Shown piece by piece: positions 12,855-44,004 of a stretch of 64,000 nucleotides of DNA. The notes under the pieces are model-generated. The model had not been told where the DNA came from and did no database searches. It worked only from the letters and a program-made list of their open reading frames with translations. Source of the stretch: a virus; the IMG/VR virus record IMGVR_UViG_3300021964_000022, positions 32,001 through 96,000 of that record; one strand, 5' to 3'. How positions within the stretch are numbered: the first letter of the stretch is position 1; each line of letters starts with the position of its first letter. The translations under genes and the position numbers were made by a program.

Positions 12855-12859
12855 TGTGT

Positions 12860-15484: not shown

Positions 15485-15925
15485 ATGCCAGATATATCAT
15501 GTAGTGGATCGTTAATTTATTCTTTAGAAACTAAACGTTTCTTAATGCTTCATAGAACAAAAACAAAACAAAACAATGTTTGGGGCCTTGTAGGCGGAAA
15601 AGGCAAAACAGCCGAAACCCCTTGGAAGACACTTGAACGTGAGATCAATGAAGAACTAGGATTCAATCCAGAGATTATAAAATCTATACCTTTAGAAACT
15701 TTTGTATCAAATGATGAAAGGTTTAATTTTCATACATATTTGTGTGTTGTTAAAAAAGAATTTATACCAATACTCAACGACGAACATGATGGTTATGCAT
15801 GGGTAAGTTTTGGCAAGTGGCCAAAGCCGTTGCATCTAGGCTTACGCAATACTTTGCAAAGCAAACAAAACATTACAAAATTACAAACAGTATTTGAATT
15901 AATAACGATATTAGAAAATGAATAA
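15485..15925 (+). CDS. NUDIX hydrolase
   Basis: Nudix box WGLVGGK....ETPW..LEREINEELG and LNDEH.GYAW. Preceded by ATAAGTA-CTAGC-ATG. Confidence 0.9.
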   Translation: MPDISCSGSLIYSLETKRFLMLHRTKTKQNNVWGLVGGKGKTAETPWKTLEREINEELGFNPEIIKSIPLETFVSNDERFNFHTYLCVVKKEFIPILNDEHDGYAWVSFGKWPKPLHLGLRNTLQSKQNITKLQTVFELITILENE

Positions 15926-17081
15926 AGTATTAGTGATCGGCGATGTCATTATTGACAAATATATTTACGGTACGTCTACACGTATCAGCCCAGAAGCACC
16001 TGTACCTGTAATAACTTACATTGATGAAAAAGAAACAAGAGGCGGTGCAGGACTTGTATATGAAAATTTAAAAAGTTTAGGTGTTGATGTTGATATGTTT
16101 GAAACACCTGGAGACATTAGTGTTAAAACTAGAATAATCTGTGACGGACATTATATTACACGTATCGACGATGATGCATCGGCAAAAGGAATGGAAGTAC
16201 TAAAACAAGTACAAGAAACTGATTTTTCACAGTACGACTATGTTGTACTAAGTGACTACAACAAAGGTGTGTTAGATGAAGCAAAAGATATTATTGCACA
16301 CATTAACAAGTATAATTGTAAAGTAATTGTTGATCCAAAAGAAAATGCTTGGTTCTACGAAAATGCTTGGTTAGTAAAACCTAACTACAACGAATTCCAT
16401 GATTTAGGATTTAATGAATGGCAGGGTAATATTATTACAACTAATGCCGGTGAAGAAGTTATTGCACACATTGATGGTAAAAACTATGAGATCCCAGTTG
16501 ACAATTTAGAAGTAGCAGACGTAACAGGAGCCGGTGATTGTTTTCTAGCTGGGTTTGTTTATGCACTTACACAAGGATATGATTACGAAACTTGTTTAAA
16601 AATTGCTGTAAAAGGATCGTCTGAAAGTGTAAAACATAGTGGTACATATATCCTTACAAAACATGATGTCGAACATACAACAGTGTTTACAAATGGTTGT
16701 TTTGACATAATACACAAAGGACATATTGAATTATTGAAATACGCTTCAACACTAGGACATGAATTAATTGTAGGTTTAAACAGTGATGCAAGTGTTAAAA
16801 AATTAAAAGGTGCAACTAGACCTTACAATGATGAAAAAACAAGATACGAAACTCTTTTTTCTTTACCATTTGTTAAAAAAGTGGTTGTATTTGATGACGA
16901 AACACCGTATAATATAATAAAACAAATTAAGCCTAAGTACATTGTAAAAGGCGGAGATTATACTATAGAAGAAGTTGTAGGACACGATTTAGCAGAAGTT
17001 AGACTATTTCCTACAGTTGAAGGCTACAGTTCAAGTTATACAATAGAGAGAATGAATGAAAATATTAGTAACAGGACATAA
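15918..17081 (+). CDS. hldE: Bifunctional heptose-7-phosphate kinase / heptose-1-phosphate adenylyltransferase
   Basis: PfkB kinase motifs VIGD.I.DKY.YG...RISPEAPVPV, SDYNKG, VDPK, DVTGAGD; C-terminal FTNGCFDIIHKGH, VGLNSDASV..LKG..RP and KGGDY. Confidence 0.93.
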   Translation: MNKVLVIGDVIIDKYIYGTSTRISPEAPVPVITYIDEKETRGGAGLVYENLKSLGVDVDMFETPGDISVKTRIICDGHYITRIDDDASAKGMEVLKQVQETDFSQYDYVVLSDYNKGVLDEAKDIIAHINKYNCKVIVDPKENAWFYENAWLVKPNYNEFHDLGFNEWQGNIITTNAGEEVIAHIDGKNYEIPVDNLEVADVTGAGDCFLAGFVYALTQGYDYETCLKIAVKGSSESVKHSGTYILTKHDVEHTTVFTNGCFDIIHKGHIELLKYASTLGHELIVGLNSDASVKKLKGATRPYNDEKTRYETLFSLPFVKKVVVFDDETPYNIIKQIKPKYIVKGGDYTIEEVVGHDLAEVRLFPTVEGYSSSYTIERMNENISNRT

Positions 17082-17892
17082 AGGATTTATAGGCCAAAAC
17101 TTAGTCTATTATTTTTTAGGTAAAGGTCATAAGGTTGACGGATTTGATTGGGTACCAAACATTATACCCGATGTTACTCGCTATGATTGGATAATACATC
17201 TAGGTGCTATAAGTGATACTACTGAAAAAGATGTAGATAAAGTTTGGGAACAAAATTTTGAATTTACAAGTAGACTAATACAAGTATGTGACCAATTTGG
17301 AGTTAATCTACAACTAGCAAGTACTAATGCAGTATACGGTCCTGGATTTGACGGCTTTAGAGAAGATTCAAAATGTTTGCCGCAGACACCTTATGCATGG
17401 AGCAAATACTTAATTGACAAGAGTATAAAAGATGTCGGAGTAGAAAATTTTTCAAATTTAGTGCAATCATTTAGATATACAAATGTATACGGTCCTGGTG
17501 AAGGACACAAGAAAAACCAAATGAGCATGATTAGTAAATGGCAAGACCAAGCCGCTCGCAACGGTAGTATTGTTGTGTTCGAAGATAGTGATACCTTTCA
17601 TAGAGATTTAATTTGCGTATACGATGTTTGTAAAATACATGAAGCAATGATGGAAAAAGATGTAAGCGGTGTATTTAACTGTGGAACTGGAAAAGCAGTT
17701 AATCTAGAAGAAACTGCTCAAATGCTTGCAAAGAAAATGAATGCTACAGTAATACACGAACCTATGCCAGTAACATTACGTCCCCAGTATCAACCATATA
17801 CAGAAGCAGATATGACACTAATACAAGAACATATTAAACTACCTAAATTTTGGTCAGTAGAGGAGTACTTAAATGATACAGGTGTTCGATGA
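17056..17892 (+). CDS. hldD: ADP-L-glycero-D-manno-heptose 6-epimerase-like SDR
   Basis: VTG..GFIG, IHLGAIS.TTE.D, YAWSK (YxxxK), RY.NVYGPGE.HK..M.S, RD.I.V.DV, FN.GTG and YQ.YT.AD. Confidence 0.88.
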   Translation: MKILVTGHKGFIGQNLVYYFLGKGHKVDGFDWVPNIIPDVTRYDWIIHLGAISDTTEKDVDKVWEQNFEFTSRLIQVCDQFGVNLQLASTNAVYGPGFDGFREDSKCLPQTPYAWSKYLIDKSIKDVGVENFSNLVQSFRYTNVYGPGEGHKKNQMSMISKWQDQAARNGSIVVFEDSDTFHRDLICVYDVCKIHEAMMEKDVSGVFNCGTGKAVNLEETAQMLAKKMNATVIHEPMPVTLRPQYQPYTEADMTLIQEHIKLPKFWSVEEYLNDTGVR

Positions 17893-28224: not shown

Positions 28225-28797
28225 TTATCCAGTAAGCGCCGTTAAGCTCTCTGCGAATTCATAAAGGTTTTCGTACACTTCAGTTTGTTTTTTAAGATCT
28301 TTGTTTGCAAAAGTGTTAAGTTTCTCTAGGGTTTCAAGGCCGTAACCTGTTTTAACAAGTACTGGCTTTGCTTTCGCCTTTACAGCCGCCTTTAAGTCCG
28401 ATATTTTATCTCCTACGTATAATCCGTTCTTCCAATTTACACCAATCTGTGTTTCAGCACGACGAAACATTCCTATATTAGGTTTAGCATATATGTCATC
28501 TTTTAAATTAGTTGTACTATAATACAATCCGTTAATACTGCTACAACCTACTTGTCCAAATAATCTTAGCATGTGTTCGTGAACTATATCAACATCCTCT
28601 GCCGTCATGTTTCCCTTAGTGATACCTGCTTGATTAGTCAATATTACTACATCGTAACCCTTATCCCTAATCATTTTAACTGCTTCTAAGCTACCTGGAA
28701 TAGGTTCAAATTGTTCTGGTTTTGTTACATACGTTCCGATATCTTTATTAATTGTTCCGTCTCTATCTAATCCAATTACTGGTGGTGTTTTAGTCAT
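28225..28797 (-). CDS. gmhB: D-glycero-D-manno-heptose 1,7-bisphosphate phosphatase (HAD IIIA)
   Basis: LDRDGTIN, ILTNQAG, KPNIGM, YVGD..SD..AA and LVKTGYG. Confidence 0.88.
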   Translation of the reverse strand: MTKTPPVIGLDRDGTINKDIGTYVTKPEQFEPIPGSLEAVKMIRDKGYDVVILTNQAGITKGNMTAEDVDIVHEHMLRLFGQVGCSSINGLYYSTTNLKDDIYAKPNIGMFRRAETQIGVNWKNGLYVGDKISDLKAAVKAKAKPVLVKTGYGLETLEKLNTFANKDLKKQTEVYENLYEFAESLTALTG

Positions 28798-31130: not shown

Positions 31131-31203
31131 GTTATTCTCCGTTGTGTAATATTTATTGGCCTCAGACCTAATAATTGTAGAGTCTGAATCTCGTAAATAC
31201 ATT

Positions 31204-31818
31204 ATGCACAATTTAACCATAGACAGTAGTCCAATAATAGAATGTAATGTTGACAAAATACAAGTACAGGATCATAGTGACATTAAAGATCAACTAATGC
31301 ACATTGTACACGACTTGTATAAGAGCAATGTCAACTATAACACAGCAAATCATAGCAGTGTTTGGTCAAGTCCTAACGGATTACAAAGTATACACAGTTT
31401 TAATCGTATTGCAAGCGGTCCTGAAATACAAACATATGCTAATCTTATGGTTGATCGATATAAAATTAAAAGTAATAGACAGATTGCTATTACAGACATG
31501 TGGATTACTATAATTCCGCCGGGAGGGATGACTGTTCCTAAGAATAGAATTAAAAGTTTAGTAACAGGTATCTATTTTCTTAATGCTCCGGCAGAGAATG
31601 CCAGTATAAATTTTAGAAAACCAATTGATACACACTGGTACGACAAAGTTTATGATCCTTTTAACCGTACTCACTATAATTGTCCTGAAGAATTATTACA
31701 AATGCAAGAAGGATATATGTACTTCTACCCTAGTTACATAGAATCTCATCAAACTACTAATGTGAGTGAGCACGAAAGGGTGTGTATTGAATTTATTTTA
31801 GATTCTGTAGACAAATGA
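31204..31818 (+). CDS. TIGR02466-type 2OG-Fe(II) oxygenase-like protein, apparently lacking the HxH iron ligands
   Basis: MWITIIPPGG...KNR.KS..TGIYF, I.F, FYPSY..SH....N....R..I.F. The likely start is ATG 31204, 4 nt after GTAAATA. Confidence 0.65.
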   Translation: MHNLTIDSSPIIECNVDKIQVQDHSDIKDQLMHIVHDLYKSNVNYNTANHSSVWSSPNGLQSIHSFNRIASGPEIQTYANLMVDRYKIKSNRQIAITDMWITIIPPGGMTVPKNRIKSLVTGIYFLNAPAENASINFRKPIDTHWYDKVYDPFNRTHYNCPEELLQMQEGYMYFYPSYIESHQTTNVSEHERVCIEFILDSVDK

Positions 31819-32249
31819 AACATATAGATAAATTATTTGACGATAATAATCAACATAAGTTTAGTTTTTTGCTATTAGCAAAGGATTTAGTTGATCACGA
31901 CACTATAATTTACTTAGAACATAAATTGAAAGACAAAATAAACGTAGTAAGTATCAAAAGTAGTAAATACAGTCACGATGAGCTACAGTATGCTATTAGT
32001 AGGAGTGATTTTATAGTTACAGGACTAGGAAAAACTTTAGATATTGCAATTAATGAAGATAAAAAAATATTAGTTGATGTGAATTCAAATAAAGTTTCAA
32101 AATCTTATCCTAATACTGTAGATTTTTTTGATCCTTACAGAAATGAAGAAACAAAACCGTTTTATAAAGATAAAGAATTAAAGTTGTTGCTTAAAGAAGT
32201 ATATAACCAACTAGATAGGTACGAAATAGATTATGTCAACTTTATGTAG
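31815..32249 (+). CDS. Hypothetical protein
   Basis: 144-aa ORF overlapping both neighbours. Confidence 0.6.
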   Translation: MKHIDKLFDDNNQHKFSFLLLAKDLVDHDTIIYLEHKLKDKINVVSIKSSKYSHDELQYAISRSDFIVTGLGKTLDIAINEDKKILVDVNSNKVSKSYPNTVDFFDPYRNEETKPFYKDKELKLLLKEVYNQLDRYEIDYVNFM

Positions 32250-33174
32250 TGCATTTTGGAAACATACAAACATAAGACCAGGTGGCCGAGTATATCCGTG
32301 TTGTCGGTTTAAACATCCTATTGGAAAAACTAACGGAGATATCGAAAACGTATTACACAGTCCTGAATACCAAGAACTTCGTGATTTAAGTGCTTCGGGC
32401 GAATATATAAGTGGATGCGAAAAGTGCTATTATGAAGAAAGTATTCAACATAGAAGTTTACGTCAAGAATTTAATGAAAAATACAACACTGATTCAGTCG
32501 GATTAGAATATTTAGAAATAGGTATTGATAATCTTTGCAATCTAACTTGCGACGGATGTAATAGTGAGTTTAGTACTAGTTGGAGAGCTAAAGAAATACG
32601 TGAAAATGGTAAAGCAAAATATGATTATATGACTATTGACACTATTACTAGTATTCCTAGTACTGTAAATAAAATTTTATTCCTAGGTGGCGAGCCATTA
32701 AGTACAACACGACATTTAGAATTACTAAAATTAGTAAAGGATCCGAAAAAAGTTGATGTTGTATACAATACTAACGCAATGTATATGCCTAATAGTGAAT
32801 TGGAAGTAATTTGGAAGTTATTTAAATCAGTTATGTTTATTGTAAGTATTGACGGAGTAGGTAAGGTTGCTGAAAAAGTAAGATCAGGAACAGTATGGAC
32901 TAAAGTAAGACGATTTATAGATTATGTAGTTAATAAAAACTATAAATTAGAATTTAATACTGTTATGCACTTAAATAACTATCAGGATATTGAAAATATT
33001 ACAGAGTATGTACGTAAATTTAATGCTGACTGGTATATCAATGTACTTACATATCCAGAATTGTTGGATATTAAGAATTTACCAATTGCTGAGAAAGAAA
33101 TTATTAAGAAAAAAGCAGTAGATTTGGATTTACCAACTAAAGACTTTATTGTTAATCATTTGAATACCAACTAA
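32233..33174 (+). CDS. Radical SAM protein with N-terminal SPASM/twitch-like Cys cluster
   Basis: C..FW.H..I.P.G.V.PCC...C.KCY..E; CNLTCDGC (CxxxCxxC), LGGEP, YNTN and VSIDG. Confidence 0.88.
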   Translation: MSTLCSAFWKHTNIRPGGRVYPCCRFKHPIGKTNGDIENVLHSPEYQELRDLSASGEYISGCEKCYYEESIQHRSLRQEFNEKYNTDSVGLEYLEIGIDNLCNLTCDGCNSEFSTSWRAKEIRENGKAKYDYMTIDTITSIPSTVNKILFLGGEPLSTTRHLELLKLVKDPKKVDVVYNTNAMYMPNSELEVIWKLFKSVMFIVSIDGVGKVAEKVRSGTVWTKVRRFIDYVVNKNYKLEFNTVMHLNNYQDIENITEYVRKFNADWYINVLTYPELLDIKNLPIAEKEIIKKKAVDLDLPTKDFIVNHLNTN

Positions 33175-34339
33175 TTAAATCATTTGCTAGTTTATTAGGT
33201 GCTGGCATGCTGTTTATTACTTTATATGTTTGATAATTATGATGTAATATAGGCATTAGATCATTATATATATTTTTTAGTTCGTTTATATTATATGAAT
33301 TTAATTTATCTATTTCTTTTAGACACATCGACAAACGTTTTTCGTCATCAACTTCATTATCATAGCTTTCATCAATAATAGAACTAAATGTTATAAATCC
33401 TAAATTTTGTAGTAAGCTAAGTGTTCCAGGTAGACCAATTATTACAAAAGGATGCCCATAAAGGAAACACTTTAATACTTTTTCAGTAAACATTTGTCGT
33501 TGTTCGCCTCTAGAAAAATCACCTTCAGTTATAATACTAAAGTAACTTTGTTGGAAATAATTTTCAAGTGTTGGCATATTAACTTTAATTGCATGATGCT
33601 GACTTTCCTCTACATCTAGCTGTAACGGTAAGCAAGACAATCTATCCTTTTGTTCTTGTGTAAGTTCTAATTTATCAAGATCAGGATCAAGAAATCGTCT
33701 TAGATTTTTTTCATCTTCAGACCATTGTTTCTTTGAATTGTTTATAAGAGCTTTATATTCTCCTAACATACAACTTAAGAAAGTATGTTTTGCTATGTCA
33801 TTTTTCAATAAATGATCAACTGTAAGTATTCTATGATATCTTTCTTGTCTGTTAACACACATAAACTTTTTATCTCGTAATTGTGCGTTAACTGCCCATT
33901 CGTGTTCTTGTATATCTATATTATCGTAACTATTAAGATGAAGATGTATATTAAAATATTGAAAGTTATCTGAATGCCCAAATACTTGTTTACATATGTC
34001 ATTCATTTTCATATTACTAGATAATATTCTCCAATGCTTTACACATTTACTTTGCGTAAGTGCATCTTTAAACATTTGCATAAACTCTTTGTCTGCTAGT
34101 CCTTCATAACTATCATCTAATATTAAAAATAATTCACTATCTTTAAAACGTTCTAACATTAATGGCATTTGTTGTAGCATATATGCGTTATTGCCCACAA
34201 ATTCAAAGAACAATATCATTTTAGGATGTACAACAAAGTTTTCTTGGTCGATATCAAAGCCTAGTATGCCTTCATATTTGTTTACAAGTGTTTCGTATGT
34301 TCGTGCGCCGCCCTGTAAGAAAGCTGATGGTATTTTCAT
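33152..34339 (-). CDS. Hypothetical protein, possibly glycosyltransferase-related
   Basis: KKF.C.NR..R.HR, SYFSIITE, FTEK.LK.....HPF..IG, L..LGF.TF..IIDESYD; the TEK motif recalls the GT10 family. Confidence 0.5.
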   Translation of the reverse strand: MKIPSAFLQGGARTYETLVNKYEGILGFDIDQENFVVHPKMILFFEFVGNNAYMLQQMPLMLERFKDSELFLILDDSYEGLADKEFMQMFKDALTQSKCVKHWRILSSNMKMNDICKQVFGHSDNFQYFNIHLHLNSYDNIDIQEHEWAVNAQLRDKKFMCVNRQERYHRILTVDHLLKNDIAKHTFLSCMLGEYKALINNSKKQWSEDEKNLRRFLDPDLDKLELTQEQKDRLSCLPLQLDVEESQHHAIKVNMPTLENYFQQSYFSIITEGDFSRGEQRQMFTEKVLKCFLYGHPFVIIGLPGTLSLLQNLGFITFSSIIDESYDNEVDDEKRLSMCLKEIDKLNSYNINELKNIYNDLMPILHHNYQTYKVINSMPAPNKLANDLISWYSND

Positions 34340-35208
34340 AATTTTTCTACTCTGTGTTTTACTATTGCATCTTGTTGTGGCTTTAGTTGAGGGTTAGCTG
34401 GGCACATTGCACAAATAGAATTTGGTTTTCGTATATTATCTATAAACTCTTCTAATTGTGTTTCTTCAAAGTCTATTCCTAGACCTTTATATTTTAAATA
34501 AGGTGCCCAGTCGTCATCACCTAATTGAAAACTTTTTGTTAAATGTGTTTCTAACATACTAATCGGAGGACATTTGTACAAACGATTTTTATATATTATA
34601 GGATATACATTTGCCATACAATTAGCATAGCTTTCATCTGGTTTATTATCTGTCCAAGGTTTAAGTATTCCGTTTATATTTTGTCTATAATCATACCAGC
34701 CACCGTCTGTAGGATCAGTAGTTTCAAACGTAACATCTTTATATTTCCAAATGTTTGGTGCTGTTTGATAAAATCCGTAATGTTTAAAAATATATTTCTT
34801 AATATTACGATCAATAATATTTCTTATTTCAGGATCTTTATTATGATATGTTAAACTAACTTTAGCATTACCTAACTCTAATAATAATTCTATTAGCTTA
34901 GGTCTTTTTGGAAACAATAATCCATTTGTGTATATTTCAATAGTTGCATGATCAAAGTGTTTACGTGTACTACGAATAATATCGTAAATGTAAGGGTGTA
35001 ATAAAGGCTCTCCACCTATAAGTGTGAAGTTATCTGGGTCTAAATGTTTAGACCAAAAGGACATATTCTTATCGATATCATCATAACTTTCTGTCCAGTT
35101 ATGATTATAATCAATAAAACGATCACAACCAGGGCAAGCTAAGTCGCAACTGGTTGTGATCATCCATTCTAAAAATGGAAGCCAATGTCCTCTGTTATTA
35201 TCACGCAT
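34336..35208 (-). CDS. Radical SAM protein
   Basis: CDLACPGC, IGGEPLLHP and YTNG; C-terminal C...LYKCP...C.MCP auxiliary cysteines. Confidence 0.88.
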   Translation of the reverse strand: MRDNNRGHWLPFLEWMITTSCDLACPGCDRFIDYNHNWTESYDDIDKNMSFWSKHLDPDNFTLIGGEPLLHPYIYDIIRSTRKHFDHATIEIYTNGLLFPKRPKLIELLLELGNAKVSLTYHNKDPEIRNIIDRNIKKYIFKHYGFYQTAPNIWKYKDVTFETTDPTDGGWYDYRQNINGILKPWTDNKPDESYANCMANVYPIIYKNRLYKCPPISMLETHLTKSFQLGDDDWAPYLKYKGLGIDFEETQLEEFIDNIRKPNSICAMCPANPQLKPQQDAIVKHRVEKL

Positions 35209-36269
35209 TAATTAAAGTAATCTTCTCGTGTTCCTTTACGTTTAGTATCTAACGTAACACAATGAAAACCGCCTGACAAAGTACGTGCTTGACGCATAGG
35301 TAATCCGATTGATTCAATACCATGCTGGTCTAATACTTTACGAAGTTCGTGTTGGTTCTCATCACAAATAACAAGTTCCTCATTAACACTCATAAAGTTT
35401 AAGCCAATGTACTTACTGCAAGGTGATACACCATTTGCTAAATTAGTACCAATGTCGTGTACTTTGTCACCTGGGAAGAAAATCTTATCCCATGATTCAA
35501 AGATAGGTGGGTACCAATCTTCGTTGATTCTGTCACCATTAAACAATACAAGTCCAGGACGTAGTGGAATAACTGTACTATCAAAATGTGAATAACTATA
35601 AAACTTTTCAGCAAGATGAATACGGTATCCTAAAGGTTCAAGGATAGTTTTTAACCACTGTCCGCCTAATAATGTACCTGAATTACTTACTTGATACAAC
35701 AAATCATTACCTAAACGTACTACATTAGGTGCATCAAATACAATTTCTTTGTTTACAAGTGTAGGAATACTTAGATCTTCAAGTTGATAAATGTCATCAA
35801 GCAATTTAGGACGTGGCGCACTAATCCATTGTGAACCGCCTTCCATTGCTTCGTACAAAAACTCTCTGTATGCTGTTGTTTCATACTGTCTTGCTCTCAT
35901 AGCACCCGGACAATCAATAATAACATTATCTAAAGGCAGTAATAAGTCTCTTGGACAATATGTATACCAACCTGTAGTTTTCCAATCTGGTGATCCAAAC
36001 TCCACGCTGTGATCAATTGATTCAGGGCGTCTTACCTTTACACCTAAGTCTGTTAATACTTTTGCAAAACCGTCAAGGTCTTCATTTGCTTCGTCAATAA
36101 CCCATTTAGGACTAGGACCTTCTAAGTCTTTGATATGTTCATATTTGCAATCTGCAAAACCAAAACTGTGTGTTGATTTATCTACTGTTGGAATACGTGC
36201 ATGATCTGCAATTCCTACAAACACTTCTTCTAGTGGATCCCAGTCATTGTGACTGCTTACTATTGTCAT
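35208..36269 (-). CDS. Amidinotransferase (Gly/inosamine-phosphate amidinotransferase family)
   Basis: SHN.WDPLEEV.VG, GV.VRRP, CPRD, FDA.N..R.G.D, HFDST..PLRPG and GGFHCVTLD (catalytic Cys). Confidence 0.92.
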   Translation of the reverse strand: MTIVSSHNDWDPLEEVFVGIADHARIPTVDKSTHSFGFADCKYEHIKDLEGPSPKWVIDEANEDLDGFAKVLTDLGVKVRRPESIDHSVEFGSPDWKTTGWYTYCPRDLLLPLDNVIIDCPGAMRARQYETTAYREFLYEAMEGGSQWISAPRPKLLDDIYQLEDLSIPTLVNKEIVFDAPNVVRLGNDLLYQVSNSGTLLGGQWLKTILEPLGYRIHLAEKFYSYSHFDSTVIPLRPGLVLFNGDRINEDWYPPIFESWDKIFFPGDKVHDIGTNLANGVSPCSKYIGLNFMSVNEELVICDENQHELRKVLDQHGIESIGLPMRQARTLSGGFHCVTLDTKRKGTREDYFN

Positions 36270-36823
36270 TTGTTCTCCTTTGTCTTCATTGTTATGTTTA
36301 TTACTATTCTTCTATAATTATTGAATGGGTTAGTGCTACTATGTAATTTATTACTTGGAAAAAATACTGCATTACCTTGTTCAAAAATACTTTGATCTAT
36401 TTGGTTTAATTTATTATCAAACATTACAGTTGGACCATCGCTTTTGTTTACATAATAAACTAAACTTGTCCATTCATCATCATGTACGTCAATATGTGGT
36501 GTATTGTAACTGTTTGATGTTGTTGTATCTTGAAATAACATATTTGCTTTTATTCTGCCAAGTTCGCACACTTGAAGTTTTTTATGATATTCAAAAAAAT
36601 GTATTAATGGTCTTACTCCTTCCCATAAATGACTTACAGGCTGTCCTTGATCGTAAAGTAAATGTACAAACTGATGACTGTCTTCAATACCATCTACTTT
36701 GTTTACTTCTTGATAATTTACAGTACTAGGTGTATATATCCATGATACTTTGTCGCCTGTAAATATGTTGTCTAGTTCGTTTACTAATGTTACAGGTAGC
36801 CAGTTTTGTAATTTGTTAAACAT
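36266..36823 (-). CDS. 2OG-Fe(II) oxygenase
   Basis: RIKAN, TPHID, YYVN.SDG.T, F.....HSSTNP and R.VININ. Confidence 0.8.
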   Translation of the reverse strand: MFNKLQNWLPVTLVNELDNIFTGDKVSWIYTPSTVNYQEVNKVDGIEDSHQFVHLLYDQGQPVSHLWEGVRPLIHFFEYHKKLQVCELGRIKANMLFQDTTTSNSYNTPHIDVHDDEWTSLVYYVNKSDGPTVMFDNKLNQIDQSIFEQGNAVFFPSNKLHSSTNPFNNYRRIVINITMKTKENK

Positions 36824-37679
36824 TTATTTTTTGTCCTATAAGGTCTGAAACAGTTACCCTATTGTACTTTCCGCCTCTATTGTTTTCTGCATATTCTTCG
36901 CCGCCTTGTCCAAACATAATACAATCTGTTTCTTCTAAATTGTTTTCTGCACAAACTTGCATATATACATTGCCGTAAGTATTCCAATTATGGTCTATAC
37001 TAAAGTTTTGTACTAGATTGTTAGCAATACTTAACGGTATTCTATTAATCATTTCAACAGAATTGAATACGTCAATACCGTCGTCTTCATCTTTACGCTG
37101 TAAACGCATACCTACACGCAAAAATTCACAACCGTAAAATGCCTTTGAAATTGAAAATGTAATCGTCTCTACTGCACTAAATTTTTTTAAGTTTAAGTTA
37201 ATATTTTTTGTACACGGAAAGTATGCAAAATCTAATAGTACAGGTATATCCATTCCAGCACAATTATATAAAATGTTCTCCATTGGTAGTTGTATACCTG
37301 CATCGCTAAACGGAACACTAATAATAACAGCATCGTTATTATCTAGTTTACTATCTTCTATGTAAGCCCAATCAAAACCATGCTTTAAACAAGCACTGTG
37401 GTACATAAATTCGCCCTTATAAAATCTAAAGCGTTTGGCCTTGTGTTTTAGATAAAAATGGTCAAATGCTTGTGCTGTGCCGCATACAAGACGTTTACTA
37501 GGAAATAGATCTAATCCTTGTAAGTTGTTTAACTTACTACTGTTAATCCAATTATAAAAGTTTTCAGTAAACTCTTGTGGTAAACTGTCATTGTATAGCT
37601 CTGAGCTACAATCTAAATTGCTAATATAATGTTTAAAGTAGTAGTCTACTACAGGTTTAGCGCCTCGTAAATTCATCAT
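36816..37679 (-). CDS. PLP-dependent aminotransferase-fold protein
   Basis: G..QAFD, GEF.YH, IS.PFS..G, LLDFAY and FSISKAFY...LRVG (Schiff-base Lys). Confidence 0.65.
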   Translation of the reverse strand: MMNLRGAKPVVDYYFKHYISNLDCSSELYNDSLPQEFTENFYNWINSSKLNNLQGLDLFPSKRLVCGTAQAFDHFYLKHKAKRFRFYKGEFMYHSACLKHGFDWAYIEDSKLDNNDAVIISVPFSDAGIQLPMENILYNCAGMDIPVLLDFAYFPCTKNINLNLKKFSAVETITFSISKAFYGCEFLRVGMRLQRKDEDDGIDVFNSVEMINRIPLSIANNLVQNFSIDHNWNTYGNVYMQVCAENNLEETDCIMFGQGGEEYAENNRGGKYNRVTVSDLIGQKINV

Positions 37680-38175
37680 AAACTCCAGTTACTTGCATAG
37701 TATACTTTGTGGTCATACCCATATTTCCACTCAAATGCAGTTGATTTCTTCTTATTATTATAGCATCACCACGCTTCCAATGCAAGAAACTTTTTTCATT
37801 TATTTCAAAATAATGTCCACTTTTCCAATCTTCTAAAAAAATATTAACCCTACAACACTTGTACGGGTCGATATTATTTTTATTTGCAAATTGAAAATAA
37901 GTATCTTCGTGATTTGGTAATGTTTGACCTGGAGGTTGTTTCATTATTCCTACGCTATATCTAGGAAATAATGTTTTGCAGAAATTATGTATTTCTTCAG
38001 TAACTTCAAATGCACGATAGTACATACTATTGTCAGTATGATATCCTGCATCAATGTATTTTAAATTTTGTTGTTCAAACTCGTCTGTACGATCTGATAT
38101 AGTTACATTATCTTCATGCACCCATTTAAGATTCTTATAATCAAAGTCTGGTAATTGTAAGTTTATTTTTCCCAT
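37657..38175 (-). CDS. Cupin/2OG-Fe(II) oxygenase-like protein
   Basis: PGQTLPNHED, R..IFLEDWKSGHY, W..GD and HLSGN.G...KYTMQVTG. Confidence 0.65.
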   Translation of the reverse strand: MGKINLQLPDFDYKNLKWVHEDNVTISDRTDEFEQQNLKYIDAGYHTDNSMYYRAFEVTEEIHNFCKTLFPRYSVGIMKQPPGQTLPNHEDTYFQFANKNNIDPYKCCRVNIFLEDWKSGHYFEINEKSFLHWKRGDAIIIRRNQLHLSGNMGMTTKYTMQVTGVYDEFTRR

Positions 38176-38915
38176 GGCTTATCGTATGGAACCTTTTCTT
38201 TATCGTCAAACCAGTATAAACTTCTATGTGGTGGAAATTTATCATCATGTTTAGCGTTACTAACATAGTAAAATAGACGAAGATTTTTTCTACTATGATT
38301 TTGTGGTAACTTCATTGGTTCGGGGTATCCATGATATGCTAAATTATTATAACTCCATACTACTAAGTTACCTGCGTCTGGTACAACTCGACTTACAACT
38401 GTTTTTCTATCAGTGTCATAAAAGTCTAAATTGCCTCCCCAACTTTCTTGCCATTTAGGATTTAAGTAAATTATAACACTTAAACGTCTATGCAATCTAA
38501 GTTGCTCATTCCAATTAAAATCTGTGTGTACTTTTAAACTATCACCTGTAAATGCTTTGCAATATCCTGCTCCTACTAAATGGGGATCGGGTATTAAATC
38601 AACAGTGTCGGTTATTTCTTGTAACCATTTTAAAAATGTTGCTCCGTGTAATGCACTTACAACAGCATCTTGAATAGGCGTATTATCAACATTATTATAT
38701 TCATACATACGACTACCTTTACGTGTAAATTTTTTACAATCCTCTAAAGGAATTTCGTCTAGTTCTTTAGCCATATTTTGTACAAGATCTATAGGTAAAA
38801 AGTTTTTTATTTCTAGTTTACTATATCCTGGATGACTTCTATATTCTTGTTGTAAAGAAAACGTGTCGGAGAAGTTATCTTGGATATGATCCAATATCTG
38901 CTTCTTAATGGTCAT
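38163..38915 (-). CDS. 2OG-Fe(II) oxygenase (prolyl hydroxylase-like)
   Basis: L.PDPHL.GAG, L.VHTDFN, IYLN..W...WGG.L, YHG.P and RK....FYY. Confidence 0.88.
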   Translation of the reverse strand: MTIKKQILDHIQDNFSDTFSLQQEYRSHPGYSKLEIKNFLPIDLVQNMAKELDEIPLEDCKKFTRKGSRMYEYNNVDNTPIQDAVVSALHGATFLKWLQEITDTVDLIPDPHLVGAGYCKAFTGDSLKVHTDFNWNEQLRLHRRLSVIIYLNPKWQESWGGNLDFYDTDRKTVVSRVVPDAGNLVVWSYNNLAYHGYPEPMKLPQNHSRKNLRLFYYVSNAKHDDKFPPHRSLYWFDDKEKVPYDKPWEK

Positions 38916-40715
38916 TTAATTTCTCACACTAATTAATTTTTTATACTCAGGTAAGTATAGGTACTCTATATCACTATCATATAATGTTCTTATCGCATCG
39001 TCAAGTGTTTCTACTAATGGTTCGCCGCCTAAGTTAAAACTTGTATTAAACAAAATAGGTAATCCTGTTTCATTATAAAAATCTTTTATTAAATTATAAT
39101 AATTTTTATTTTGTTCTTCTTTTACTGTTTGTATACGACATGTACCGTCAACGTGTATGATACTAGGAATCTTTTCAGCAATACCAGGTTGACAATTCAT
39201 TGCATACATCATGTGCGGTGTTTCTTCTAATCCACGCATATCAAACCATTCGTGTGCATGTTCGTGTAGTATACTACCAGCAAACGGACGGAAATATTCT
39301 CTACGCTTAACTTTGTTAACATGATCTTTACCATCTTCGTATGATGGGTCAAACAATAAACTACGATTACCTAATGCTCTCGGTCCTGATTCCGAACGTC
39401 CTTGGAACATTGCTACAATATTTTTATTTGTTAATAATTCTATAACATCTTTATTTTCTGCGTCTTTTATTTCTGCATCATATTTTTCTACTACTGATGT
39501 TATTTCCTTATCAGTATAAGAGTACGCAGGGCCTAAATATAAACTATCTGCATATGTACGCTGTTTATCATCTTGCATCATATGATGATAATGTAACATT
39601 GCCGCACCAATACATGTTCCAGCATCGCTTGAAATTGGTTCAACATACAATTTAATACCATGTTCGTTAAGTGTTTCTAAGAAGAAATAGTTTGCTACAC
39701 AGTTTAGTCCATAGCCGCCGCTGAGTACAACGTTTTTATTCCCGGTCATTTCAACTGCATTTAATATAAGTTCTAGTACACGCTGTTGTGATTCTGTTTG
39801 TACTGCATACGCCATATCTCTACGACTTTGTAATGTTGTTAAATCTTCACCATTTTCATAAACTGATTGTTCAGTTTTTAAGGCTTCATATCTGTTTTCA
39901 TTTACAACAGCACCGTTTGGATAAGTTGGAATAATTAAATTTCTATTTGCAGACACCCATTCATTACCGCCATCATCTGTATATACTGGAGGTATACCAT
40001 CGTTTGGTTTGCCGTATGGTGATAGACCCATAGTTTTACCTGCTTCAATTGGTTGCCAGCCGCAGTATTGTGTTACTGCTTCATATGCTTTTACAATTCC
40101 TGCTGTATCGTCAAGTACTAATTCGTGTGTTCCACTTTCGCCTTCACGCTCACTAGGTATATTCATCTTAGCACCCATATAAGGTCCACGACCGCCTTGG
40201 TGCTTCCATATTGTTTTAATATTTGCAGGGTATTCACAATTAAATATTGTTTCTAACTCCCATGTCATTTCAGAGGTATTACCAAAATTCATAGGAATGT
40301 ATGTGCCTGCTCCGTCTACAATAACTGCTGTTGCACTTTTAAATCCTGAGCGATAAAATGCACACGCCGCATGTAGTTTATGGTGTACAAATGCATAATC
40401 TAATACTTGAGGGTGTTCAGTACCTTCGTACTTCCTATCAATTAATCCTAATTTACGAGCAAGTCCAGTGTATATATCGTCACCGCTAAAATCAATTTTA
40501 CCTGCTGTCTCACCTAATGGTTGTGTATGTGCAATTATTAAGTAATCAATTTTATCTGTATAGTCGAGTATTTTAACCATACCTGCTAAAGGTCCGCCAT
40601 CATACTTTTGTCTACTTAATCGTTCTTCTTCTAAACTAAAAATAACTTCACCGTCTTTTAATAGACAAACTGCTCCGTTATGACCTCGTGTTATACCTGC
40701 TATCCATTGTGCCAT
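38916..40715 (-). CDS. Carbamoyltransferase (NodU/CmcH/TobZ family)
   Basis: EEERLSRQK, HH..HA, VDG.G, GKTMGL.PYG, GG..LNCVAN, GRSESGPRALGNRS, RE.FRPFA, HVDGT.R.QTV and NTSFN..GEP. Confidence 0.95.
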   Translation of the reverse strand: MAQWIAGITRGHNGAVCLLKDGEVIFSLEEERLSRQKYDGGPLAGMVKILDYTDKIDYLIIAHTQPLGETAGKIDFSGDDIYTGLARKLGLIDRKYEGTEHPQVLDYAFVHHKLHAACAFYRSGFKSATAVIVDGAGTYIPMNFGNTSEMTWELETIFNCEYPANIKTIWKHQGGRGPYMGAKMNIPSEREGESGTHELVLDDTAGIVKAYEAVTQYCGWQPIEAGKTMGLSPYGKPNDGIPPVYTDDGGNEWVSANRNLIIPTYPNGAVVNENRYEALKTEQSVYENGEDLTTLQSRRDMAYAVQTESQQRVLELILNAVEMTGNKNVVLSGGYGLNCVANYFFLETLNEHGIKLYVEPISSDAGTCIGAAMLHYHHMMQDDKQRTYADSLYLGPAYSYTDKEITSVVEKYDAEIKDAENKDVIELLTNKNIVAMFQGRSESGPRALGNRSLLFDPSYEDGKDHVNKVKRREYFRPFAGSILHEHAHEWFDMRGLEETPHMMYAMNCQPGIAEKIPSIIHVDGTCRIQTVKEEQNKNYYNLIKDFYNETGLPILFNTSFNLGGEPLVETLDDAIRTLYDSDIEYLYLPEYKKLISVRN

Positions 40716-40716
40716 C

Positions 40717-41256
40717 TTAAAACTCTCCTACGTCAAATGTAAAGTCACTTACAAAGACTTTTCGTTGTTGTTGTGTAGGATATGTGCCATGCCATACTCT
40801 ACCATCTAGTATTATTAACTTACCTGCTTCAGGCTTCCATTCTTCATAACTCATTCTATTATCATTATTCAATGTAGCATACAAATATCCTGCATGTGGG
40901 TATTTTTCTTCTTCTATGTAATCATTTAAAAATAACACACAAGTAAATTGCCTACCCGGTGTATGTGAATGCATACCAGCATAACTATGTTTTGGATAAT
41001 CTATCCACCAACTTTTACTATGCTGTATATTTTTATATGGTAAATTTTTAACATGTTTTTTTATATGTTCTTGATAATCATTACTAATTATAGCAGGAAA
41101 TTCCCAATTATGCAAGTGAAAAATTGTACTATCACCACTATCTCTATGACTTTCTGCTTCTATATCAAATAGTTGCATAAAGTCGTTATAATTGTCGTAC
41201 TTACTTTCTATGTAATACGTAGGCAACAAACTATGAGCGTAAGTATCAAAGTCCAT
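40717..41256 (-). CDS. 2OG-Fe(II) oxygenase-like protein
   Basis: W...YP..SYAGMHSH, VLFL, G.LII.DG...HG.YP and R.VFV. Confidence 0.7.
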   Translation of the reverse strand: MDFDTYAHSLLPTYYIESKYDNYNDFMQLFDIEAESHRDSGDSTIFHLHNWEFPAIISNDYQEHIKKHVKNLPYKNIQHSKSWWIDYPKHSYAGMHSHTPGRQFTCVLFLNDYIEEEKYPHAGYLYATLNNDNRMSYEEWKPEAGKLIILDGRVWHGTYPTQQQRKVFVSDFTFDVGEF

Positions 41257-42314
41257 TAACTTCCTGTTCTATTTAAAATTTGTGCTGGTTGTTGTTGTTG
41301 ACTGTGGTCATGATTAGGATTGTCACAACTTTGTGATTGAGGTGCCATCGGAATAAATGTTCCGGTAAATTTTTCACTTTTTCCTAATGCTTTTTTACAA
41401 CTATTAACTACCTTAGAAATATTATCTTTTCCTAATTCCATTACTTCGTCATTTACACGATCTTGCCAATCTTCCATTGTTGTTCTAATGGGACTATATG
41501 TTCTTTTACCTTCGCCAACATCAATAATATCAAATGTATTATCATTAGGATAAGATATGTTGATTGGAAAAGTACTTCCAGTAACAATAGTTGCTGATTT
41601 ACCTAGTGCCTTTGCTAGGTGTTGTCCTAAACTATCACAACCTAAAAAGTGATCTGCAATTTCAATTATACTTGCCCAAGTTCTTGTATCTGGAATCTGT
41701 GGCATAGCTACTGGAGTTTTATTACTGTCATTATCATCTAATGCTACAGGAAATTCACTCATTAATATAACAGCATATTCTTTTTTAAGTTGATTAATTA
41801 TTTCAATAACGTCATTTAGATGAAAGCTTCTACTAGTTGGATCAATTATAAAATCGCCCATGTTTTGTGTACTTCTTCCAAAAGGTTGAAATACCAATAC
41901 TTTATCTAATTTAGTTTTGGCTTTAATTTCTTGTACAATGTTAAATCCATTGACTATTTCTTGTTTATTAAGAATTACTTTAGGATCGCCCATATCTCTT
42001 AAACCTTTGTTATTAATAATAATATCAAATGCTTGTGCAATACTTGCTTGTTGGTTGTAATACTCCCAAACCCTATACGGTTCTGGACTTACACAATCTC
42101 TATGTTTAATATAATCTTCGAATAGATTCTTATGCCAAACGTCATATGCACGTTTATGTAATGTAGGATGTCCTTTATAAAAGTCCATACCACCTTCGCA
42201 TACAATGATAAAATCGTTATCTGGGTTTTCTTCTTCGAATTTTTCAAACGCAGGTATTGATGTGATTACCCGGCCTGCGCCACCATTGATAAAAAATGCT
42301 GTTGATCTAGACAA
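41256..42314 (-). CDS. GT-B glycosyltransferase, GT9 (ADP-heptose heptosyltransferase)-like
   Basis: N-terminal GGAGRVI..IPA (compare GT9 xIGD), R.WASII..ADHFLGCDS..QHLA.ALG....IV.GST (GT9 DSG..HLA.A motif). TTG start with AGGAGG RBS. Confidence 0.65.
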   Translation of the reverse strand: MSRSTAFFINGGAGRVITSIPAFEKFEEENPDNDFIIVCEGGMDFYKGHPTLHKRAYDVWHKNLFEDYIKHRDCVSPEPYRVWEYYNQQASIAQAFDIIINNKGLRDMGDPKVILNKQEIVNGFNIVQEIKAKTKLDKVLVFQPFGRSTQNMGDFIIDPTSRSFHLNDVIEIINQLKKEYAVILMSEFPVALDDNDSNKTPVAMPQIPDTRTWASIIEIADHFLGCDSLGQHLAKALGKSATIVTGSTFPINISYPNDNTFDIIDVGEGKRTYSPIRTTMEDWQDRVNDEVMELGKDNISKVVNSCKKALGKSEKFTGTFIPMAPQSQSCDNPNHDHSQQQQPAQILNRTGS

Positions 42315-42317: not shown

Positions 42318-42360
42318 ACGTCCTCCTATAATATTGTTAAAATATTTATAGTGAGGACGT
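42318..42360 (-). promoter_or_regulatory. RBS-sequestering hairpin containing a TATAAATA late promoter
   Basis: ACGTCCTC (42318-42325) pairs with GAGGACGT (42353-42360), extended inward by CTATA/TATAG and ATATT/AATAT. The AGGAGG RBS is in the 3' arm and TATAAATA (42343-42350) is in the 5' arm. Confidence 0.75.
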
Positions 42361-43152: not shown

Positions 43153-43989
43153 TTACATAAATGTAATTCTTACTACACCAGATCCAGCCTGGCCTCCACC
43201 CGCACAACATTTGTGTGCATTGTCGTAATAGCTGTTTTCACCTGACTGTCCGCCACCTGCGGGCCAGTTAACATAACAACCACATACACACCAAGTCTCA
43301 GATGCAGAGTTGAACGAACGTTTACCAATTATTGGTGCCGCTCCAGTCCATTGTCCACGTCTTCTACAGTGGTGATATCCGTTACCAAAACGCATACCTG
43401 AATCACCCATCATGCCCATATCTGCACCCCAGAATCCGCAAATATTACAGTTTGCACAACCCCATGATCTATCATATACGCCCCATGCATCTGAGTTACA
43501 GTTCCACCCACCACATGCTCCTGTTACACAGAAGTTTGATAAGTTGTATCCATTTACATATGAACGACATCCTATACCGCCAGTACAAGTGTGTGATTTT
43601 TCACACGGCCATGCACCGCCTGCACATACTGTATATGTACAACCTGGTTGAGTCGATACTGTTTTTATAGCATAGTTTCCGCCTTGTCCTGATATTGTAT
43701 ACATACAACAGTTAGCACAAGTACCGCCAGCGCCACCGCCGCCGCCGCTCCAAATTTCAAATGTTACTGTTCCAGTATTTGCTGGTACAGTCCAGTTACA
43801 ACACATTCCGTTAGTTTGTCCACAACAATCACCTGCCATAGCACATTGGTGACATTCTAAACCTCTTTGGTTATAGATCCATTGTACACCTAAATTGTGT
43901 CCTGCTCCCGGCTCTAGCTGTGTTGCTGTTATCGATCCGTTGTCGATACTATCAACATCAACTTTTTTATAACTTGCATATGTTGCCAT
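43153..43989 (-). CDS. Cys/Gly-rich fibre-tip/adhesin-like protein, paralog 3
   Basis: WTVP....VTFEIWSGGGGG...GGNY...YT.CAGG...GSGVVRIT glycine-rich domain; 26 Cys by hand count. Confidence 0.7.
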   Translation of the reverse strand: MATYASYKKVDVDSIDNGSITATQLEPGAGHNLGVQWIYNQRGLECHQCAMAGDCCGQTNGMCCNWTVPANTGTVTFEIWSGGGGGAGGTCANCCMYTISGQGGNYAIKTVSTQPGCTYTVCAGGAWPCEKSHTCTGGIGCRSYVNGYNLSNFCVTGACGGWNCNSDAWGVYDRSWGCANCNICGFWGADMGMMGDSGMRFGNGYHHCRRRGQWTGAAPIIGKRSFNSASETWCVCGCYVNWPAGGGQSGENSYYDNAHKCCAGGGQAGSGVVRITFM

Positions 43990-44004
43990 AATATTTCCTC
44001 TTTC

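Follow-up and report, generated by a model that had tools for sequence, protein, structure and literature searches.

What does a marine phage make with ten tightly packed genes that resemble a secondary-metabolite cluster? The question is raised by a 64,000-nt stretch of viral DNA (positions 32,001 to 96,000 of the IMG/VR record IMGVR_UViG_3300021964_000022), which we call the window. In it, a minus-strand operon at 42314..33152 brings together an amidinotransferase, an O-carbamoyltransferase, a pyridoxal phosphate (PLP) enzyme, a radical S-adenosylmethionine (SAM) enzyme, several oxygenases and candidate glycosyltransferases. The window is part of a T4-like cyanomyovirus, with genes for a terminase, a tail sheath, gp15-like and gp10-like proteins and giant fibre proteins. 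The 110-kb record that contains it has an estimated completeness of 30%, and the nearest relatives of its carbamoyltransferase are in the Synechococcus phages Sf-FS3 and S-SSM7 (Kyanoviridae), at 67% identity. We find that the operon is the junction of two modules that happen to be joined in this phage. As to its function, we put at about one half the probability that it is a late-transcribed sugar-tailoring unit, in which a keto sugar would become an amino sugar and then a guanidino sugar, to be placed onto a glycoconjugate.

The operon consists of exactly ten minus-strand open reading frames (ORFs), which we number o1 to o10 in transcription order. The intergenic space between them never exceeds 1 nt: there is a 1-nt overlap at 41256, two genes abut at 38915/38916, another 1-nt overlap is found at 35208, and the remaining junctions are overlaps of 4-23 nt or a single 1-nt gap. 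The ORF listing of the window therefore bears out the ten tightly coupled genes described in the first-pass annotation. That annotation had also taken the operon as a complete unit and as one ten-gene pathway, and both claims need revision. The conserved unit also takes in three convergent plus-strand genes at 31156-33174, which we name p1 to p3. At 33152-33174, o10 (minus) and p1 (plus) converge with 3’ ends that overlap by 23 nt, so that the two units have no space between them for a terminator, and we found no terminator-like site in that interval.

The division into modules comes from 63 IMG/VR loci that we retrieved with o8 probe peptides, at 54-97% identity, and in which we placed the window proteins by tblastn. 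Where at least 2.5 kb is available upstream of o8 (55 loci), we find o6 in all 55, o5 in 54 and o4 in 52; where at least 3.5 kb is available downstream (52 loci), the counts are 46 for o9, 45 for o10 and 44 for p1. Further along, p2 occurs at the equivalent position in 32 of the 63 loci, and p3 occurs in 43. The exact order o4-o5-o6-o8-o9-o10/p1-p2-p3 is found in 25 loci, in addition to window-like loci, and because gene order is conserved across viral contigs the arrangement is more than chance. Module 2 is thus a set of nine genes, o4, o5, o6, o8, o9, o10 and the convergent p1-p3. Module 1 is o1 with o3, and sporadically o2. It is a far less frequent companion, with o1 in 7/63 loci, o3 in 8/63, and, where 3 kb or more lies upstream of o4 (45 loci), a carbamoyltransferase in just 7. 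These counts (8/63 and 7/45) do not sustain the view of the amidinotransferase and carbamoyltransferase pair as the defining logic of the operon, and the pair recurs in one bacterial and one further phage locus. Module 1 is common to S-SSM7 and Sf-FS3, positioned after Cys/Gly-rich paralogues and a tail-fibre-chaperone-like gene; module 2 is missing entirely from both, though the Cys-rich paralogues are present.

The membership of module 2 also persists where its order does not. Distant versions in L059, L060, L064 and L003 are reshuffled but retain o5, o6, o8, o9, p1 and often o10, and the same genes are found, likewise reordered, in L067, L068, L071 and L072, which are contigs binned into metagenome-assembled genomes (MAGs). 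Among these distant loci, p1 is kept in L059, L064, L067 and L071. Random shuffling of gene content among relatives had been named beforehand as an outcome that would speak against a shared pathway. For the core genes we observe the opposite, a conserved co-occurrence.

The anchor of module 2 is o8 (35208..36269, minus strand; 353 aa), a StrB1-type L-arginine amidinotransferase. It aligns near gap-free to the streptomycin-biosynthesis enzyme StrB1, an inosamine-phosphate amidinotransferase (PDB 1bwd; residues 2-351 against 2-346, E 3e-90, 306 bits), and more weakly to SxtG (1e-53, 186 bits), HsvA (1e-52, 183 bits) and AGAT (2e-51, 179 bits). The choice between a StrB1-type and an AGAT-type enzyme, which had been posed from the sequence, is decided by these scores for StrB1. 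Residues Cys337, His228, Asp230, Asp108, Arg125 and Arg127 are invariant in 18/18 sequences, while position 179 is Asp in 16/18 and Glu in 2/18. The catalytic Cys, His and Asp residues align with the GGFHC, HVDST and FDAAN stretches of StrB1. What differs from StrB1 is the setting: o8 is viral and lies amid glycosyltransferase, radical SAM and oxygenase genes, without cyclitol-forming enzymes.

Across L004-L066, o8 has a median identity of 90% to the window protein, to be compared with medians of 69% for o4, 55% for o5, 62% for o6, 58% for o9 and 41% for o10, and of 57%, 30% and 25% for the convergent p1, p2 and p3. Higher conservation of o8 than of the rest of its module suggests an unusually strong constraint on this protein or a recent exchange of its gene. 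In a tree of 25 amidinotransferases, the viral copies form a tight and well-supported clade, with MAG-binned rows interleaved with the viral contigs and the bacterial L070 sister to one such group. The actinobacterial copies fall outside the viral clade, and the copy from the cyanophage S-SCSM2R is on a long branch.

The core gene set is recurrent in many uncultured ocean phages and nearly absent from cultured ones. At least 10 metagenome studies, of estuaries, the sea and sediments, have sequencing runs with near-identical DNA (possible source samples left out). In a collection of 5.8 billion proteins there are 2370 homologues of o8 at E<=1e-20; identity is 63-94% for the best 120, nearly all of which lack a name. 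In 50,697 deposited phage records, from which those of this phage or of very close ones may be missing, the only cyanophage with an o8 homologue is S-SCSM2R, at 40% identity, and the distant relatives are in 12 Campylobacter and 2 Enterococcus records, at 22-26% identity. The 12 Campylobacter phages (H32-H43, such as CP220 and CPt10) have full-length relatives, with E down to 2e-32, that are annotated as possible glycine amidinotransferases. For other members of module 2, tblastn against the deposited phages gives one weak match for o6 (Pelagibacter phage Mosig, 24% identity), two weak matches for p1 and none for o10. A megablast of the 9.2-kb region against the same phages gives no match.

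Other copies of the module, or of its amidinotransferase, lie among sugar genes. In the commonest viral arrangement (L015 type), module 2 lies away from the tail fibres, after a UvsX/RecA-like gene, and its flanks include GT25, a methyltransferase, a cytidylyltransferase-mannose-6-phosphate isomerase fusion and GT8. The S-SCSM2R copy is surrounded by four glycosyltransferases, a DegT-type 'AHBA synthase' and a radical SAM gene. We also gathered 12 GTDB loci, three of which are clearly bacterial. In the bacterial L074 (GC 52%), the amidinotransferase is directly followed by a full DegT/StrS sugar aminotransferase and, further on, by transketolase halves, two radical SAM genes, GT9 and a UDP-Glc/GDP-Man dehydrogenase. 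The bacterial L070 (GC 63%, on a 240-kb contig) has a GDP-mannose 4,6-dehydratase and an epimerase/reductase. There a carbamoyltransferase match is followed after about 30 nt by the amidinotransferase match, the two ORF calls overlapping slightly, and a second carbamoyltransferase and a radical SAM-SPASM gene come next. L068, with UvrC and SpoIID genes nearby, has a small o5-o8-o6-o10-like island. L073, a T4-like phage contig binned as Chloroflexota, has genes for an NTP-transferase, a B12-radical SAM enzyme, a 2-oxoglutarate (2OG) oxygenase and the amidinotransferase, and also for a DegT fragment, a carbamoyltransferase, a halogenase, an AMP-binding protein and a nitroreductase. Nucleotide-sugar enzymes and glycosyltransferases therefore recur as partners of the amidinotransferase in both phages and bacteria, and of the sugar or side chain proposed as substrate in the first-pass annotation, a sugar gains support from both kinds of neighbourhood.

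Four of the GTDB loci, L067, L071, L072 and L073, are binned as Verrucomicrobiales, Puniceispirillum, Synechococcus lacustris and Chloroflexota, yet have phage-like traits: T4 RNase H, Mtd_N fibre and DUF2201 genes, and a GC content of 28-36%. Their phage-like content, and amidinotransferases that interleave with those of viral contigs, suggest that all four are mis-binned.

For o8, S-SCSM2R offers the one comparison with a deposited cyanophage. Its ORF305/306/308/309 region has an amidinotransferase (40% identity), a radical SAM enzyme (27%) and a small oxygenase (28%) adjoining one another among glycosyltransferases. This version is divergent and reordered; where the window has the HisC-like o6 it has a DegT-type PLP fragment, homologues of o10 and p1 are not detected in it, and it is not in a late tail-fibre operon. 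The 2025 S-SCSM2R paper calls the trio 'antibiotic synthesis genes', on annotation alone (PMC12801897). We rejected a second S-SCSM2R gene, ORF266, as an o8 homologue, since tblastn with o8 (E 1e-5) finds ORF309 only. ORF266 (L079, 10354-11247), annotated 'glycine amidinotransferase', lies beside kdsA/kdsB and 2OG oxygenases, and the paper reports it in the virion proteome (PMC12801897).

The remaining enzymes of module 2 are identified with varying precision. Among the families assigned in the first-pass annotation, those of the carbamoyltransferase, the amidinotransferase, the radical SAM enzyme, the 250-aa 2OG oxygenase and the PLP enzyme hold. The 179-aa and 185-aa 'oxygenases' (o2 and o7) score under the Pfam cut-off. 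The first gene of the module, o4 (38163..38915, minus; 250 aa), is a P4H-type 2OG-Fe(II) oxygenase (PF13640, 1e-15, 58.8 bits against a cut-off of 27), with weak matches to models of peptide- and flagellin-modifying oxygenases (YhhC 1e-4, FlmC 3e-5). The next, o5 (37657..38175, minus; 172 aa), is a small metal enzyme of the cupin/double-stranded beta-helix type. Its earlier label 'cupin/oxygenase' stands as far as the residues H89-x-D91...H147 go, which are invariant in 13 sequences. It is 28% identical to S-SCSM2R ORF308, annotated '2OG-Fe(II) oxygenase', and PF05118 is found in 19% of the members of an adjoining Atlas cluster, a lead towards an Asp/Asn-hydroxylase-like enzyme.

The PLP enzyme o6 (36816..37679, minus; 287 aa) has no Pfam model at threshold, and its family comes from structure. 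An AF2 model (pLDDT 86.5) has a compact fold of type I, with Foldseek matches to HisC, the histidinol-phosphate aminotransferases (1e-10, TMq 0.63-0.66), and to CobD, a threonine-phosphate decarboxylase, the two together spanning E 1e-10 to 1e-9. As in fold-type-I PLP aminotransferases, Lys179 (in SxSK) and Asp150 are invariant, here in 12 sequences; by motif rather than by superposition, we take them to be the Schiff-base lysine and the residue that binds the pyridine nitrogen. The radical SAM enzyme o9 (34336..35208, minus; 290 aa; PF04055, 7.8e-12, 46.1 bits against a cut-off of 29.5) has the cluster motif C21-x3-C25-x2-C28 (CDLACPGC) and a Cys-rich C-terminal part, and is 27% identical to S-SCSM2R ORF306.

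The last minus-strand gene, o10 (33152..34339; 395 aa), had been called a GT10-like hypothetical protein. Its modelled fold is GT-B, and the GT10 label is a lead only. All 90 relatives from a profile search are unnamed and without Pfam domains, and o10 itself has no sequence-family match. An AF2 model (pLDDT 86.6) matches SenB, BshA and T4 beta-glucosyltransferase (BGT) in Foldseek at 4e-5 to 2e-4, and VIA-align aligns 255-305 residues with many GT-B families at Z 12.7-10. T4 BGT comes top (Z 12.7), with several GT4 enzymes at Z 11-12.6 and T4 alpha-glucosyltransferase at Z 11.5. The GT10 matches, FUT11 (Z 11.4, root-mean-square deviation 3.9), an H. pylori-type FucT (Z 10.9) and FUT9 (Z 10.5), have the lowest deviation, yet they lie within about 2 Z of T4 BGT and the GT4 enzymes and are effectively tied with them. 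An invariant TEK...HPF stretch may resemble the GT10 nucleotide-sugar motif. Sequence and profile searches of the PDB with o10, o6, o1, o5 and o7 gave nothing usable.

Of the convergent genes, p1 (32233..33174, plus; 313 aa) encodes a radical SAM enzyme whose twitch/SPASM domain is N-terminal. The protein matches NF033640 (N_Twi_rSAM) at 7e-65 (219.6 bits, cut-off 170) and the radical SAM Pfam model at 30.5 bits (cut-off 29.5), with the motif CNLTCDGC. Between it and p3 is p2 (31815..32249, plus; 144 aa), syntenic with module 2 and without a family match. The 2OG-Fe(II) oxygenase p3 (31156..31818, plus; 220 aa) is of the Oxy_5/TIGR02466 type (PF13759, 2e-9, 38.1 bits against a cut-off of 27; TIGR02466, 1e-12), and its true start may be downstream of the TTG at 31156.

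Two genes of the operon are sporadic inserts, both weakly similar to 2OG-Fe(II) oxygenases: o2 (40717..41256, minus; 179 aa), with PF13640 at 23.4 bits (cut-off 27) and phrog_81 at 6e-8, is found in 3/63 viral loci, and o7 (36266..36823, minus; 185 aa), with PF13640 at 24.4 bits (cut-off 27), is found in 2/63. The match of o7 to phrog_274 (4e-31) brings the label 'DNA endonuclease V', and an ORF at 17873-18379 likewise matches phrog_274 (6e-16). The Pfam matches of both are solely to 2OG-Fe(II) oxygenase models, and neither has a PDB sequence match. The 'denV' label common in cyanophage annotation (as for S-SSM7 gene 124) may, to judge from these profile matches, be a misnomer for an oxygenase.

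In module 1, the firm identification is that of o3 (38916..40715, minus; 599 aa), an O-carbamoyltransferase of the NodU/CmcH/TobZ type. Its Kae1-like N-domain (Carbam_trans_N, 2e-24, 87 bits, cut-off 24) and YrdC-like C-domain (Carbam_trans_C, 5e-59, 199 bits, cut-off 27) each score over the curated cut-off, and its PDB matches are 7xb6 (1e-59) and NovN, GdmN and TobZ (1e-42 to 1e-46). The other member, o1 (41256..42314, minus; 352 aa), had been labelled a glycosyltransferase, and GT9 (heptosyltransferase-like) is a lead only. Its strong match is to phrog_8954 (2e-146), of unknown function. TIGR02201 is weakly matched over residues 212-248 only (E 0.059), its Atlas cluster is auto-named ADP-heptose:LPS heptosyltransferase, and PF01075 (GT9) occurs in 22% of the members of an adjoining cluster. 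PF01075 itself matches neither o1 nor anything else in the 110-kb record, and hhalign of o1 against a genuine GT9 gives Prob 3.5%, with the DSxGxxHxAxAxG stretch alone aligned.

A heptose would suit module 1. In S-SSM7 and Sf-FS3 its homologues share an island with heptose isomerase, kinase and adenylyltransferase genes. This island, between the tail-fibre paralogues and gp13, is at the same position as in the window and has homologues of u1-u5, o1 (58-59%) and o3 (67%); it adds 2OG oxygenases, a halogenase and heptose genes, and is without module 2. The window itself encodes an HldE-like heptose kinase/adenylyltransferase (PfkB and CTP_transf_like) and a nucleotide-sugar epimerase (Epimerase) at 15918..17892 (plus; phrog_7878, phrog_540), and an HAD phosphatase at 28225..28797 (minus; PNK3P, Hydrolase and HAD Pfam matches, 6e-10 to 4e-8) with GmhB as a lead. 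These three are a possible supply of ADP-heptose for o1. The plus-strand unit at 12848-18786 begins at an ATAAATA (12848), passes gp14-like and gp15-like structural genes, and continues into genes for a NUDIX hydrolase, HldE, the nucleotide-sugar epimerase, a 2OG oxygenase and a cupin labelled 'cysteine dioxygenase'. From this layout, the sugar-nucleotide genes appear to be co-transcribed with neck and tail genes.

The timing of expression is read from promoter motifs. A T4-type late-promoter-like motif, TATAAATA, lies at 42343..42350 (minus), 29 nt upstream of the o1 start. The window has 3 copies of this motif (about 11 expected by chance) and 19 copies of ATAAATA (about 36 expected by chance). 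With a non-coding share of 1.9% in the window, 12 of the 19 ATAAATA copies sit 6-35 nt upstream of a same-strand ORF start, including those of the tail sheath and of both giant fibre ORFs. The motif before o1 is placed as those before the sheath and fibre genes are, and TATAAATA is a reasonable candidate for a T4-type late promoter, in agreement with the earlier promoter claim. Contigs from RNA libraries of two studies (X18; X19, X20) cover parts of the operon. All three have a 3-nt deletion at 41288 inside o1, which is absent from the DNA run X6 and is probably a strain variant.

We arrange these parts into a candidate pathway, as follows. In module 2, a sugar hydroxyl would be oxidized to a ketone by the twitch-type radical SAM enzyme or by a 2OG oxygenase, and the HisC-like o6 would turn this ketone into an amine by transamination. 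Next, o8 would take the amidino group from L-arginine and place it on the amine, through a thio-amidine at Cys337 and with release of ornithine, and the GT-B enzyme o10 would transfer the finished sugar to an acceptor. Aminoglycoside biosynthesis uses a BtrN-type twitch radical SAM dehydrogenase followed by an aminotransferase, and by analogy the same alcohol-to-ketone-to-amine logic may apply to p1, whose twitch assignment comes from NCBIfam and whose twitch domain is N-terminal. In module 1, the GT9-like o1 would probably use ADP-heptose made by the HldE, epimerase and HAD gene products, and o3 would O-carbamoylate a hydroxyl with carbamoyl phosphate and ATP. For the acceptor we tentatively favour a virion surface protein, because the operon and the heptose genes appear late and among structural genes, and we place a host envelope glycoconjugate second. 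Viruses reportedly glycosylate their own virion proteins in several systems, among them the capsids and tails of mycobacteriophages and the glycans of chloroviruses and mimiviruses, where glycosyltransferases and sugar genes are likewise virus-borne and expressed with structural genes. We know of no guanidino or carbamoyl sugar in viral glycans, of no guanidino sugar in any glycan, and of no virion glycosylation in cyanophages. A fuller version, in which a widespread, nearly uncultured group of marine myoviruses makes a cationic guanidino sugar and displays it on the fibre proteins of the virion, joined in this phage by a carbamoylated heptose, strikes us as a doubtful extension.

Several observations weigh against a sugar-tailoring unit. 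That reading is built on gene order, families, folds, catalytic residues, synteny and sugar-enzyme neighbourhoods, while the reaction order, sugar substrate, product and acceptor are ones that we infer, each chemical step being taken from enzyme families. The 63 loci are mostly close relatives (78-97% identity) found through o8 and are not independent samples. The fold of o6 is HisC/CobD-like rather than that of a DegT-type sugar aminotransferase, neither the GT9 assignment of o1 nor the GT10 assignment of o10 is established, and a Pfam scan found no kinase or nucleotidyltransferase within the operon. For both o8 and o3, the nearest characterized relatives belong to small-molecule antibiotic pathways, and oxygenases of the P4H and Asp/Asn-hydroxylase types usually act on proteins, which would also fit direct protein modification. 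As for timing, the RNA-library contigs carry no strand or start information and could come from DNA carry-over, so they are not evidence of expression. In the commonest viral arrangement, represented by L015 and L052, the 7.8 kb upstream contains no late-promoter motif; late timing, with the virion target that follows from it, may be limited to phages of the window type.

The first alternative is a free small molecule: following streptomycin, bluensomycin or saxitoxin logic, the operon would assemble or tailor a diffusible aminocyclitol or guanidino metabolite directed at the host, at competitors or at grazers. The closest characterized relatives of the enzymes are indeed tailoring enzymes of antibiotics and toxins (StrB1 at 3e-90, SxtG at 1e-53, TobZ, NovN, GdmN), no acceptor protein has been identified, the phage contig L073 adds AMP-binding, nitroreductase and halogenase genes, and the S-SCSM2R authors name the homologous trio after antibiotic synthesis (PMC12801897). 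Among the 19 ORFs scanned in and around the operon there is, however, no scaffold, export or resistance gene, at odds with the secondary-metabolite cluster of the first-pass annotation: inositol-phosphate synthase, sugar-phosphate cyclase, polyketide synthase, nonribosomal peptide synthetase, exporter and self-resistance genes are not found in the operon, and a dehydroquinate-synthase-type cyclase (PF01761) is not found in the 110-kb record, itself a partial genome. Saxitoxin, where SxtG and SxtI also join an amidinotransferase to an O-carbamoyltransferase in one operon, differs in that SxtG is the weaker match to o8 (186 against 306 bits), no SxtA-type enzyme is found, and the pair is present in 8/63 loci. 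With glycosyltransferases and nucleotide-sugar enzymes as recurrent neighbours, and a late unit in a lytic phage leaving scant time for a secreted product, we consider a free small molecule unlikely. An association of unrelated auxiliary genes, each acting alone on host metabolism (arginine and ornithine, or the 2-oxoglutarate balance), would need no common product at all. The operon is certainly composite, with module 1, o2 and o7 coming and going (8, 3 and 2 of 63 loci). Since 2010, cyanomyovirus islands have been known to harbour a carbamoyltransferase, prnA and 2OG oxygenases sporadically, and roles for 2OG, though no pathway, have been proposed (Sullivan et al. 2010, PMC3037559). Such a mosaic is improbable for module 2, whose membership and order are kept in at least 25 loci and whose membership is kept through reshuffling, from phages to bacteria.

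Two further alternatives dispense with the sugar or put it on another target. The enzymes might modify protein side chains directly, by hydroxylation, by radical SAM cross-linking as in ribosomally synthesized and post-translationally modified peptides, and by turning Lys-type amines into homoarginine-type groups, on structural proteins such as the adjacent Cys/Gly-rich paralogues or collagen-like fibres. The P4H-type o4 with its weak matches to YhhC (1e-4) and FlmC (3e-5), Asp/Asn-hydroxylase-type genes in the distant L059 and L064, the similar lead for o5, the frequent role of twitch/SPASM radical SAM enzymes as peptide maturases and the presence just upstream of three paralogues of 278-281 aa with 26-30 Cys all fit this scheme. 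The gene distribution does not. The Cys-rich paralogues are present in S-SSM7 and Sf-FS3 although module 2 is not, most module-2 loci have no Cys-rich paralogue within 10 kb (u2 homologues are found in 7/63), a GT-B enzyme is a conserved member of the module, and the bacterial homologues are in nucleotide-sugar clusters. To our knowledge, moreover, StrB1-type enzymes act on small molecules only, and we regard direct side-chain modification as improbable too. Finally, the target could be DNA: oxygenases or a hydroxymethylase would make 5-hydroxymethyl pyrimidines, which the carbamoyltransferase, GT-B, PLP, radical SAM and amidino enzymes would decorate as an escape from restriction. PLP and radical SAM enzymes take part in thymidine hypermodification, and the top VIA-align match of o10 is T4 BGT (Z 12.7), with T4 alpha-glucosyltransferase at Z 11.5; these matches are, however, tied with many GT-B families. 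A phage enzyme of the NodU/TobZ type has been demonstrated to carbamoylate 5-hydroxymethylcytosine, giving 5-carbamoyloxymethylcytosine, and o3 has the two domains of that enzyme and of TobZ, NodU and CmcH. In the same study, the DNA-modifying carbamoyltransferases co-occur with thymidylate-synthase homologues, and those of unmodified contigs are flanked by glycosyltransferases; the neighbours of o3, a glycosyltransferase and oxygenases, match the latter, non-DNA-modifying group (PMC8670742). A thymidylate-synthase homologue (PF00303) is not found in the partial genome of the 110-kb record, a late-promoter motif is ill-suited to a function at replication time, and the bacterial homologues lie in glycan-type clusters. 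DNA hypermodification is therefore the account to which we give the least credence.

Other features of the window surround the operon. Just upstream, at 43153-45703 (minus), are the three Cys/Gly-rich paralogues, with 51-54 Gly each, which match phrog_4205 (function unknown) and have 3-4 copies at the equivalent place in S-SSM7 and Sf-FS3. Beyond them, at 46547-51349 and 51386-56737 (minus), are two giant proteins of 1600 and 1783 aa, each with 3-4 CBM_5_12 repeats (1e-35 to 6e-40) and each with its gene preceded by an ATAAATA motif. From their repeats, they are probably fibres with lectin-like modules. Just past module 2, at 29658-31256 (minus), is a tryptophan-halogenase homologue (PF04820, 1.5e-93). 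With the TTG at 31256 taken as its start, this ORF includes an ATAAATA at 31150; the halogenase probably starts downstream of that motif, and the overlap of about 100 nt with p3 is probably a start-choice artefact. Amid structural and packaging genes at 4751-5188 (minus), a 145-aa ORF has a TnsA-like endonuclease N-terminal domain (1.2e-23), and this domain suggests that it may be a homing-type endonuclease.

Our literature search, made mostly without subscription journals, found nothing on the nine-gene module, on its spread or on its nucleotide-sugar link. It likewise found nothing on guanidino sugars, on an amidinotransferase with a nucleotide sugar and a glycosyltransferase, or on a cyanophage carbamoyltransferase with heptose. 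For a phage inosamine amidinotransferase it found the S-SCSM2R paper only; PMC11360552 and a preprint on 7-deazaguanine mention amidinotransferases in unrelated contexts only.

We place the operon with the phage islands for sugar and glycan tailoring, with possible new sugar chemistry. A large share of marine Synechococcus and Prochlorococcus falls victim to cyanomyoviruses, whose hypervariable islands have stood since 2010 as unexplained lists of 'host-like' genes, from which one coherent nine-gene module is now singled out. The sugar-tailoring account would also correct the published reading of the S-SCSM2R homologues as 'antibiotic synthesis genes'. If that account is true, it would describe a new sugar modification and a small, testable set of enzymes; the fuller version, with display on the virion, would be the first virion glycosylation in cyanophages and a new sugar chemistry common to these phages and some bacteria. 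A guanidino sugar on the virion would alter adsorption, host range or stability, and a guanidino- or carbamoyl-glycan, whether on the virion or on the infected cell, would bear on the adsorption and host range of ocean phages.

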